Positions 21,001 through 24,000 of a DNA stretch of 26,877 nucleotides are shown in pieces; positions within the stretch are counted from its first letter, which is position 1, and each line of letters opens with the position of its first letter. Made by a program: the position numbers. Source of the DNA: a virus (Duplodnaviria > Heunggongvirae > Uroviricota > Caudoviricetes); IMG/VR virus record IMGVR_UViG_2718218104_000011; one strand, 5' to 3'.

Positions 21001-24000
21001 TGACAATGGTAATACGTTGACGGGGCAATATGCAGTTCGCTGCATACCGGTCCGACCCCGTACTGCTCACGCAGCTTATCCAGCAGTGGCATCATTTTTT
21101 CCAGAGGCGGTCGAACTCCGCCTTCGCAAAATAAGCGGAAGCCTGGCGAAGGATATCGTTACTGCGGCGCAGTTCACGATTTTCACGTTCCAGCTCTTTC
21201 AGACGCTGACGTTCAGCGCTGGTGAGCCCACCATCACCGCCCCCGGTATCCCGCTCATGCTGGCGAACCCAGACACGCAGAGTCTCCGGCGTACAGCCAA
21301 TCTTTGGGGCAATGGAACAAATTGCCGCCCACTGTGAGTCATATTCATCCTGACTTTCCAGAACCATACGAATCGCCCGCTGACGGACTTCGGGGGAAAA
21401 ACGAGTATTTTTAGTCATCCTGTTTACCTCTTTCTCAGGGAGTTTAGTCTCCAGGATTTCCGGGGCGGTTCACCCTGCTGGCTGAGGTTTGCACCGGTGT
21501 GGCTCCGGAAGTTAATGCTAAGGCGCTGGCCTGGGGAAAACAGTACGAGAACGACGCCAGAACCCTGTTTGAATTCACTTCCGGCGTGAATGTTACTGAA
21601 TCCCCGATCATCTATCGCGACGAAAGTATGCGCACCGCCTGCTCTCCCGATGGTTTATGCAGTGACGGCAACGGCCTTGAGCTGAAATGCCCGTTTACCT
21701 CCCGGGATTTCATGAAGTTCAGGCTCGGTGGTTTCGAGGCCATAAAGTCGGCTTACATGGCCCAGGTGCAGTACAGCATGTGGGTGACGCGAAAAGATGC
21801 CTGGTACTTTGCCAACTATGACCCGCGTATGAAGCGTGAAGGCCTGCATTATGTCGTGGTTGAGCGGGATGAAAAGTACATGGCGGGTTTTGACGAGATG
21901 GTGCCGGAGTTCATCGAAAAAATGGACGAGGCACTGGCTGAAATTGGTTTTGTATTTGGGGAGCAATGGCGATGAAGCATCCTCACGATAATATCCGCGT
22001 AGGCACGATCACTTTCGTCTACTCCGTTACGAAGCGAGGCTGGGTATTTCCCGGCCTTTCTGTTATCCGAAATCCGCTGAAAGCCCAGCGGCTGGCTGAG
22101 GAGATAAATAATAAACGGGAGGCGATATGCACAAAGCATCTCCTGTTGAGTTAAGAACGAGTATTGAGATGGCACATAGCCTTGCTCAAATTGGAGTCAG
22201 GTTTGTGCCAATACCAGTAGAAACAGACGAAGAATTTCATACGTTAGCCACATCCCTTTCGCAAAAGCTGGAAATGATGGTGGCGAAAGCAGAAGCAGAT
22301 GAGAGAGACCTGGTATGACAACCACTGAATGCATTTTTCTGGCAGCGGGCTTCATATTCTGTGTGCTTATGCTTGCCGACATGGGACTTGTTCAATGACA
22401 CCTCAGCAAGAAAACGCCCTTCGCAGTATTGCCCGTCAGGCTAATTCTGAAATCAAAAAAGCCAGACAGCCGTTTCCGGATAAAAACGTCGATGACATTT
22501 GCCGTAGCGTACTGAAGAAGCACCGCGAAACGGTAACGCTGATGGGATTCACACCGACTCACTTAAGTCTGGCAATCGGCATGTTAAACGGCGTCTTTAA
22601 GGAACGGTGAACATGAAAAGCAAAATCATCAGGGAGCTACAGGCTCCTTTTTTATTATTCGCATTCACCCTCAAGCGTATTAACCAACAATTCAGGGATT
22701 AATGGAAGATGGCAGACATCATTGATTCAGCATCAGAAATTGAAGAATTACAGCGCAACACAGCAATAAAAATGCGCCGCCTGAACCACCAGGCTATATC
22801 TGCCACTCATTGTTGTGAGTGTGGCGATCCCATAGATGAGCGAAGACGCCTGGCCGTTCAGGGTTGTCGGACTTGTGCAAGTTGCCAGGAGGATCTGGAA
22901 CTTATCAGTAAACAGAGAGGTTCGAAGTGAGCGAAATTAACTAGAAGCCAAAGATAAAATCATCGCTGAGCAGGAGAAAATCGCTAACGGAGAAAAGACA
23001 GTAAGTCAGTATATGAAAACCGCATGATATCATCAGATAAAAATCGATCGTAAAGCGAAATATTAATACCAGAATAAACGAGTCGAGGTAAATTATATTA
23101 CCTCGATAAATTAACTAAAACTTGCCCGCTATATACTATCTCATTCAGTATCATCACGCGCGGTCTGTGCATATGTTACTACCGCACCTAATGTATTAAT
23201 TTTCTTTTCAACATAGATAATATTATCGTACTCATAATTGCCATACGGATAGCAAATGCGAATATTCTCATGTAGATCGGGGTCATCCACCTCAGCTCCA
23301 GAACAACTTTTTGAACTACCGGAAGTATACCGATACGGTGCAACATAAGACGATGTCTCTCCAGGCAAAAAATAAGTTAGTGTTGTAAGGGGTATAATCA
23401 GAAAAAATCCAGCAAATATGCACATCCCTGCATAAACCTTAAGGTATGCTGACAGACTCTTCCAGCCGCTTTGTTTTACTATCCCCTTCTTAACCCAAAA
23501 CAGAGATAACAGAAAAGCTATTCCCATGCTAAACAGAATGTAATAGTGGGATATACTCTGATTAAGAAACGTGACCCTGTAAATATCTGCCCGCCACCAG
23601 AAGAAAAGGAAAATAAAGATCAGGCCTAAAACTGTCATGCAAATCAAATAAGGATACGAATCTTTTTTCATGTTTAGCGCCCATAAAATTTTTCCTGCCC
23701 CGGACAAATTTACCATCCATTTTTTGCGCAGAAAATAGCTCATTACTTACTGCACAATAATACACAAAATTGCGTAAATTTTTTGCATGGATTTTAGCTC
23801 TTTCAGCCGACGTTTAAGGGGTAAATAGCATTTCCTAAAAGCAACTGCACCAACCCAACAGAATGAGCTACCGCTTACGTTGAGAGCAAAAAAGTGTATA
23901 GCAGCAATGAACAGCATCCTCGCACTGACGAGGATTTCTTTTATCTGAACTCGCTACGGCGGGTTTTGTTTTATGGAGATGATAAATGCACTTCCGAGTC

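Follow-up and report, generated by a model that had tools for sequence, protein, structure and literature searches.

Several small envelope proteins, among them HK97 gp15, T4 Imm, Spackle and P1 Sim, stop genome entry after adsorption. One of these, HK97 gp15, is a moron with a chromosomal homolog, YebO. The prophage proteins Cor, Llp and DicB inactivate a conserved host entry factor rather than recognizing the phage. The prophage-expressed P22 SieA resides in the inner membrane, has 162-164 residues with three predicted transmembrane (TM) helices, and blocks DNA delivery at that membrane (PMC10883804). SNIPE is a constitutively membrane-localized single-protein nuclease at the siphophage injection site, where it exploits ManYZ and the tape-measure protein (PMC13190303). 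Here we describe a minus-strand gene at positions 23141-23671 of a 26,877-nt stretch of Caudoviricetes DNA (IMG/VR record IMGVR_UViG_2718218104_000011), hereafter referred to in full as the window. The best reading of the locus, from its sequence, is an autonomous cargo cassette ('moron') of ~650 bp that encodes a 176-residue inner-membrane protein. This protein is a good candidate for blocking infection by other phages, and it is cargo in slots that often hold anti-phage genes.

The window protein resembles SieA in size, in its three TM helices and inner-membrane location, in being encoded by a stand-alone gene, and in the uncertainty that has surrounded its start codon. Homology between the two was considered and rejected, as the family profile aligned to SieA with an hhalign probability of 0.2%. 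SieA differs by a long soluble segment between TM1 and TM2 and has neither a C-terminal beta-domain nor a conserved Cys pair, and its gene sits in the immI region of P22-like podoviruses, unlike the cargo gene. SNIPE cleaves DNA via its nuclease domain, whereas the window protein is without a recognizable cytoplasmic domain. The likeness to HK97 gp15 lies in being a moron that has a chromosomal homolog. Nevertheless, gp15, Imm, Spackle and Sim differ from the window protein in size, TM number and fold, and none of them (nor YebO) was found by an exhaustive profile search or a PHROG scan. The host-factor mode of Cor, Llp and DicB would fit the conserved, predicted periplasmic domain of the window protein, but Cor and Llp are outer-membrane lipoproteins, DicB is cytoplasmic, and none is homologous to it. 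If the protein is an exclusion factor, it would be a structural variant within a known kind of system.

The family itself has been catalogued before, in the gpA-gpQ locus of P2-like prophages, which is an experimentally shown defense hotspot holding old, tin and several newly validated systems (Rousset et al. 2022, PMC9122126). Table S5B of that study lists System #4 as a single protein with no Pfam domain, described as '3 TM', with 470 occurrences. The System #4 sequence aligns with the window protein by BLASTP (51% identity over 168 residues, E 3e-56), and Table S5A of the same work includes WP_000711113, the P2-type allele of E. coli. System #4 and the PHROG entry phrog_1416 represent the same family as the window protein. 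The table of tested systems in PMC9122126 does not contain this sequence, and the literature search returned no later paper characterizing this family. As far as we can tell, the family is catalogued, but unnamed, unannotated and apparently untested. The System #4 entry lacks the lambdoid allele, the corrected start, the predicted periplasmic barrel and the link between two phage contexts. The family has neither name, domain nor phenotype despite its presence in ~17% of complete E. coli genomes (including O157:H7), in phage 434 and at 470 P2-hotspot loci.

The cassette in lambdoid and P2-like prophages

A cryptic lambdoid prophage of the CP-933K type from E. coli O157:H7 makes up the window. 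It lies at att-lambda, adjoining ybhC, and the kilobase of it that was tested is identical to O157:H7 genomes, EDL933 among them. Similarity to lambda (97%) ends at 22942 and resumes at 23916; therefore, a segment of 973 bp (22943-23915) replaces lambda ea22-ea8.5. The GC content of this segment is 0.37-0.41, against 0.45-0.55 around it. A preliminary description of this DNA had counted a TraR-like zinc-finger gene among the contents specific to the slot. That assignment does not stand, because lambda carries the same ORF (open reading frame). The TraR/DksA-type gene on the left flank (22709-22930, plus strand; Pfam zf-dskA_traR, E 7.7e-9) is the equivalent of lambda orf73, which encodes a 73-residue protein upstream of ea22, and 72 of the 73 residues are identical. 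The TraR-like gene is outside the cassette, and only the membrane-protein segment replaces ea22-ea8.5.

The expectation that the membrane-protein gene would be a swappable cassette is borne out by the comparison of related prophages. The slot holds ea22-ea8.5 in lambda, ea22 and an LprI-family gene in ev099, and nothing in PhiR70_1, while diverged alleles of the gene occupy the gpQ-gpA slot of P2-like prophages. Lambdoid genomes invariably show TraR/orf73 first, then the gene (opposite strand), then orf55 or orf114, and finally xis or torI. Phages 434, 2B8 and mEp332, all of them plaque-forming, encode proteins 98.5-99.5% identical to that of the window. The annotation of phage 434 gives 'putative membrane protein' only, and RefSeq names the product 'hypothetical protein' (WP_000120056). 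Of 5426 complete E. coli genomes, 915 carry the lambdoid allele, with matches to at least 80% of the coding sequence (CDS) in 911. The ev099 gene, of the lysozyme-inhibitor LprI family, lies between ea22 and orf55 (L019 1607-2305) and is another envelope-directed cargo.

In P2-like prophages, the diverged alleles (55-78% identical) lie between the portal gene gpQ and the replication gene A, sometimes as the sole cargo. Carriers of this type span four genera, namely Salmonella (with two alleles), E. coli, Klebsiella michiganensis and Enterobacter hormaechei, and the P2-type allele occurs in ~113 complete E. coli genomes. Among the 80 IMG/VR contigs that carry the family, 65 have it in the lambdoid exo-xis region, 14 in a P2-like prophage, and one in a host flank. 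A contig without lambdoid or P2 markers was considered as a third phage context and rejected, as it holds a Serratia-type chromosomal copy beside a prophage end. Within a K. michiganensis P2-like prophage (L023 2281-5623), genes for a 790-residue AAA_16-type protein and a 279-residue protein without Pfam match adjoin the family gene. This pair in the gpQ-gpA hotspot is a possible second defense system.

The two contexts share a well-delimited core. The CDS together with ~115 nt upstream (23137-23785) aligns with an E. coli P2-like prophage locus (L029) at 78.4% over 653 nt by blastn, and no similarity was found outside. The conserved upstream region, with its TGnTAAnTT motif and direct repeats, travels with the CDS, and a hairpin follows the stop codon. 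Translation of the adjacent sequence reveals an ea22-like remnant (22927-23033, plus strand) that reads GTG-SEIN-stop and continues as an out-of-frame coiled-coil fragment, KDKIIAEQEKIANGEKTVSQYMKTA. In E. coli P2-type loci, a longer truncated ead/Ea22-like pseudogene takes the same convergent position (L029 4285-4655, minus strand). The presence of ea22 remnants beside both alleles suggests that the cassette took a part of its lambdoid neighbor along as it passed between the lambdoid exo-xis region and the P2 hotspot.

Phage-borne alleles have a GC content of 0.38-0.42 against 0.53 in the flanks in four of the five cases measured, the Klebsiella P2 allele being the exception. In the window, the gene combines insertion at a differently filled site with deviant GC content (0.386 versus 0.489), as is typical of a moron. 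The interpretation as hotspot cargo is supported, and defense function is a well-motivated hypothesis.

Gene model and predicted architecture

As the preliminary description had it, the window holds a 200-codon minus-strand ORF at 23141-23743 that includes the peptide ICYPYGNYEYDNIIYVEKKINTLGAVV, is convergent with the TraR-like gene and is AT-rich, with a GC content of 0.386 against 0.489 in the 3-kb flanks (0.365-0.395 in a sliding profile). The start codon, regarded there as ambiguous, proves resolvable. Homologs from Salmonella, Enterobacter, Klebsiella and Cedecea that are 42-78% identical measure 169-180 residues and all start at Met25 of the ORF. Moreover, DNA similarity between the window and Salmonella extends ~115 nt upstream of the conserved ATG, and in the Salmonella alleles the equivalent of the upstream ATG is directly followed by TAG, with DNA homology continuing through it. 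The true start is almost certainly the ATG at 23671-23669, which gives a protein of 176 residues, not 200, and a stop codon at 23143-23141. On the same grounds, we reject both the 200-residue reading and the TTG start of the 434 annotation. The in-frame extension of 24 codons (23672-23743, minus strand) is absent from all diverged homologs. Because homologs start at Met25 and Salmonella has TAG after the upstream ATG, this extension is probably untranslated and would serve as a leader and promoter region.

An extended -10-like element, TGGTAAATT, lies within this region (23707-23715, minus strand), 44 nt upstream of the conserved ATG. Of 13 loci, 8 have the form TG[GA]TAA[AGT]TT at -44 to -48 (including alleles from E. 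coli, Salmonella, Enterobacter of the P2 type and Cedecea), and we infer a putative promoter from this conservation. A generic two-hexamer promoter scan did not detect the element. Farther upstream, three direct repeats with a ~10-bp period (TTTACGCA / TTTGTGTA / TTGTGCA; 23751-23778, minus strand) precede the putative promoter. These TTGTGCA repeats lie ~35-65 nt upstream of the putative -10 and are conserved in lambdoid and P2-type alleles from E. coli, Salmonella and Enterobacter (the window, L005, L022 and L036); they are clearer in the P2-type alleles (ATTGTGCAAAATTGTGCAGTATTGTGCAG). Such an array may bind a response regulator of the winged-helix class or a comparable factor. Downstream, a consensus scan found a terminator-like hairpin 35 nt past the stop codon (23083-23106, minus strand), with a 9-bp stem followed by CUCGUUUAUU. 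The region 23070-23145 folds at -17.3 kcal/mol with a z-score of -2.4, and its U-run is weak.

The N-terminal part of the protein comprises three TM helices and two loops (23366-23653; residues 7-102 of 176). Hydropathy places the hydrophobic segments at residues 31-51, 64-86 and 102-126 in the numbering of the 200-residue ORF, and the AlphaFold2 model has helices at 5-29, 38-61 and 70-101 (pLDDT 87.1, pTM 0.72). Both thus give three segments, instead of the roughly four initially proposed. The remaining ~70 residues (23144-23365) are predicted to form a C-terminal five-stranded OB-like beta-barrel on the periplasmic side, and this domain, modeled alone, reaches a pLDDT of 89.6. It had been described as rich in Tyr and Cys. 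The first holds (9 of 76 residues are Tyr), whereas the second does not, since the domain has exactly two cysteines, both invariant (codons 23303-23305 and 23252-23254).

Conservation is concentrated in this domain. The two cysteines are the only invariant columns in an alignment of 34 members that extends down to 17% identity, and every one of the 34 has exactly two cysteines in its C-domain. With an entropy of 1.79 bits, compared with 2.2-2.6 bits elsewhere, it is the most conserved part of the protein, and nonsynonymous substitution (dN) proceeds there at about half the rate seen in the TM part. The TM1-TM2 loop is conserved as well, whereas the TM2-TM3 loop, predicted to be cytoplasmic, is the most variable and contains an indel. 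Because net positive charge clusters at the N-terminus and within the TM2-TM3 loop, the predicted topology is N-in and C-out, in which the TM1-TM2 loop and the C-domain would face the periplasm. As its two cysteines are the sole invariant residues, the modeled barrel is probably periplasmic, disulfide-bonded and held close to the membrane. The full AlphaFold2 model had no match in the PDB, and Foldseek against the viral structure predictions of BFVD returned nothing significant. A 112-residue remnant ORF (P0157) of the E. coli P2-type allele that retains TM3 and the C-domain is found on more than 1000 contigs.

The ratio of nonsynonymous to synonymous substitution (dN/dS) is 0.08-0.15 wherever the synonymous rate can be estimated (alleles 59-78% identical), and homologs occur in at least seven genera. 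The ORF is therefore a genuine gene, not a product of chance, and is subject to strong purifying selection. An exhaustive hidden Markov model search of 1.84 billion cluster representatives recovered only 57 proteins, all of which have the same ~170-residue architecture or are fragments of it. The window protein displays the family feature, namely three TM helices followed by a C-domain with a CSGA...IxICxP motif.

The protein had been called unrecognized, and database searches agree. The window protein matched nothing in Pfam (E <=0.01), NCBIfam, PADLOC or the PDB (phmmer), and the 34-member family likewise matched nothing in Pfam, PADLOC or the PDB (profile search), apart from scattered single sub-threshold Pfam hits of members other than the window protein. 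No colicin or bacteriocin immunity family, holin or other named membrane family exceeded the Pfam gathering threshold, and no defense model of PADLOC-DB v2 was matched by the window protein or by any of the 34 members. The sole match is phrog_1416 (E 2e-50), an entry without assigned function that covers only the last 88 residues. All 34 members match this entry, which was built on the C-terminal 90 residues only, and no annotated PHROG was matched. The literature search revealed no characterized homolog, and nothing relevant on the phage 434 genome or mEp332. In short, the gene is conserved in other genomes and matches no characterized non-defense family, so that neither outcome foreseen as contradicting the defense proposal was found.

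Function and competing explanations

We tentatively favor, with less than even confidence, the reading that the gene encodes an envelope-acting superinfection-exclusion factor expressed by the prophage. Transcription would run from its own promoter, opposing the direction of the pL operon, and the protein would therefore be made in the lysogen. It would act at the periplasmic face of the inner membrane, where it may bind either a conserved component of the envelope or the injection apparatus that an incoming phage inserts into the membrane. Genome entry would then be stopped after adsorption. The cassette itself, with its own conserved upstream region, has moved between two unrelated families of temperate phages, namely between the lambdoid exo-xis slot and the P2-like gpQ-gpA hotspot. 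A host component is a likelier partner than a variable phage protein, since conservation peaks in the predicted periplasmic domain and chromosomal homologs have this domain too.

A narrower proposal can be drawn from these elements, although we regard it as doubtful. The protein may represent the first of a new family of single-gene superinfection-exclusion factors, in which a disulfide-locked periplasmic OB-like barrel masks a conserved host factor for genome entry. Under this host-factor-masking proposal, the family, which passes between lambdoid and P2-like phages, would also have been domesticated by the chromosomes of several Enterobacterales. One factor that, speculatively, might be masked is a permease of the phosphotransferase system (PTS). 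Two chromosomal copies of the gene adjoin PTS EIIC genes (Serratia ptsG and Klebsiella EIIBCA), an observation made post hoc on very few sites. Lambda and HK97 use PTS permeases as entry factors, which makes this adjacency suggestive, and it may be a coincidence.

Several points weigh against an exclusion function. Lambda plates on 434 lysogens, which is what heteroimmunity classically means. It is therefore unlikely that lambda itself is strongly excluded, and lambda is probably not the target. No phenotype is known for the family, which has neither a PADLOC match nor an annotated PHROG. The evidence for the promoter is a conserved motif, and the Shine-Dalgarno sequence of the window allele is weak. 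The P2-type allele is often frameshifted or truncated (P0155, P0157, P0162; L030 3607-4182), and strong selection everywhere is therefore not suggested. Moreover, syntenic chromosomal homologs with host-like GC content exist in Serratia, Enterobacter and Klebsiella and on Pantoea megaplasmids, which argues for an ancestral cellular function and leaves room for an ordinary envelope function. Finally, the commonest cargo of the P2 hotspot is a plasmid-partition system, so not all of its cargo is defensive (PMC9122126).

The chromosomal homologs bear most directly on the strongest competing explanation. In Serratia marcescens, the gene lies directly downstream of ptsG, between ptsG and mntR (L033/L038 6001-6510). 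The Enterobacter copy sits between a LysR and a GGDEF gene (with 12 similar places), the Klebsiella chromosomal copy is divergent from a bgl-type EIIBCA gene (L013 6001-6543), and 25 megaplasmid records of Pantoea carry a homolog. A further homolog is found on a plasmid- or ICE-like (integrative and conjugative element) contig, and the Cedecea site is surrounded by prophage and insertion sequence (IS) debris. One of the Serratia records (L038; NZ_CP042515.1, 'plasmid pE28_003', S. marcescens) is a linear 67-kb sequence with mltG-tmk-holB-ptsG-mntR and is evidently a chromosomal fragment misfiled as a plasmid.

From this distribution, it is conceivable that the product is a lysogenic-conversion or housekeeping envelope protein without any anti-phage role, which modulates a transporter, an envelope-stress pathway or cell-wall enzymes to the benefit of the lysogen. 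We consider this explanation unlikely, though it deserves serious attention. The chromosomal copies in Serratia, Pantoea and Enterobacter look stable and syntenic, those of Enterobacter and Klebsiella have a GC content of 0.52-0.55, near the 0.57-0.58 of their flanks, and the predicted periplasmic domain is conserved across chromosomal and phage copies. Likewise, the phased direct repeats upstream resemble a response-regulator site. However, the chromosomal locus differs by genus and the Cedecea site contains mobile debris, which together look like repeated acquisition and not like an ancient core gene. Phage copies, in addition, occur specifically in two accessory hotspots, one of which is validated for defense (PMC9122126).

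The protein could also be an orphan immunity factor against a toxin active in the periplasm or at the inner membrane, such as a colicin, a bacteriocin, an effector of type VI secretion (T6SS) or contact-dependent inhibition (CDI) systems, or a lysozyme-type enzyme, with the barrel neutralizing the toxin. In broad terms, known immunity proteins resemble such a small multi-TM protein whose periplasmic face is conserved, the gene is a single one carried on many mobile elements, and the equivalent slot of ev099 holds the lysozyme-inhibitor gene described above. Yet none of the ~15 contexts examined contains an adjacent toxin gene, and no immunity family in Pfam was matched, so that we judge this role improbable.

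An abortive-infection effector, which would permeabilize or depolarize the membrane upon infection and kill the cell before the phage cycle is completed, appears highly improbable. TM proteins are common among defense effectors of the hotspot (PMC9122126), and Foldseek gave a non-significant resemblance to a 'SMODS-associating 2TM beta-strand rich effector' (E 0.32). On the other hand, the gene stands without a sensor partner and often alone in the hotspot; the constrained part is predicted to be periplasmic and the cytoplasmic loop is variable, with nothing in the cytoplasm to sense infection.

That the ORF is a non-functional, decaying passenger, open by chance or recent descent, is hardly credible: the host prophage is defective (bet truncated; int frameshifted in the EDL933 copy) and truncated or frameshifted alleles are frequent in the P2-type lineage, but the whole family is under strong purifying selection, the window allele is intact and nearly identical to the 434, 2B8 and mEp332 copies, and the gene is present in the E. 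coli genomes counted above, nearly all of which have at least 80% of the CDS. A holin or lysis role was likewise considered and rejected, as the gene lies outside the lysis cassette, on the strand opposite to the early operon, and is present in chromosomes.

If the host-factor-masking proposal is true, the cargo that ranks fourth in frequency in the E. coli P2 hotspot would be accounted for, as would a gene of the classic phage 434. A protein that blocks phage entry would represent a structurally new type of exclusion protein, which would matter for the host range of therapeutic phages in enterohemorrhagic E. coli (EHEC), Shigella and Salmonella. If the protein does not block entry, a very common occupant of a 'defense hotspot' would be a non-defense gene, which would call for caution in discovery by guilt-by-association.

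Surroundings of the cassette

On the right flank of the replaced segment, lambda-like sequence resumes (23916-24153, plus strand) with terminator-like hairpins that match tL4 of phage 434, followed by orf55 (23986-24153). The next genes are xis (24193-24411) and int (24389-25459). The phage 434 record M60848 annotates t-L4 between ORF55 and a partial opposite-strand ORF. This old record of the 434 int-xis region stops inside the cargo gene, which it names 'ORF-22+'. A scan of 22600-24450 against Rfam found no RNA family.

Between the cargo gene and the hairpins, a 56-residue ORF (23747-23917, minus strand) is called 'putative membrane protein' in the phage 434 annotation and is not called by PGAP. 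It ends 3 nt before the first ATG of the 200-codon ORF, and its start lies inside the tL4-like hairpin. This ORF matched no family and falls outside the cassette core, as judged from the alignment and from blastn between the lambdoid and P2 alleles. It was rejected as part of the unit and is probably not a gene.

Elsewhere in the window, the prophage shows further signs of its cryptic state. At ~20415-21298, bet is without its N-terminus and borders, on the opposite strand, ninE-ninF-ninG and a phosphatase gene, an inverted nin region, which indicates that the region for immunity and replication is either absent or inverted at this place. Just past int, the genome record of phage 434B contains NleC-like, NleH1-like and IS1414 fragments. 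The O157:H7 prophage at the same site is known for the same cargo of type III secretion system (T3SS) effectors.

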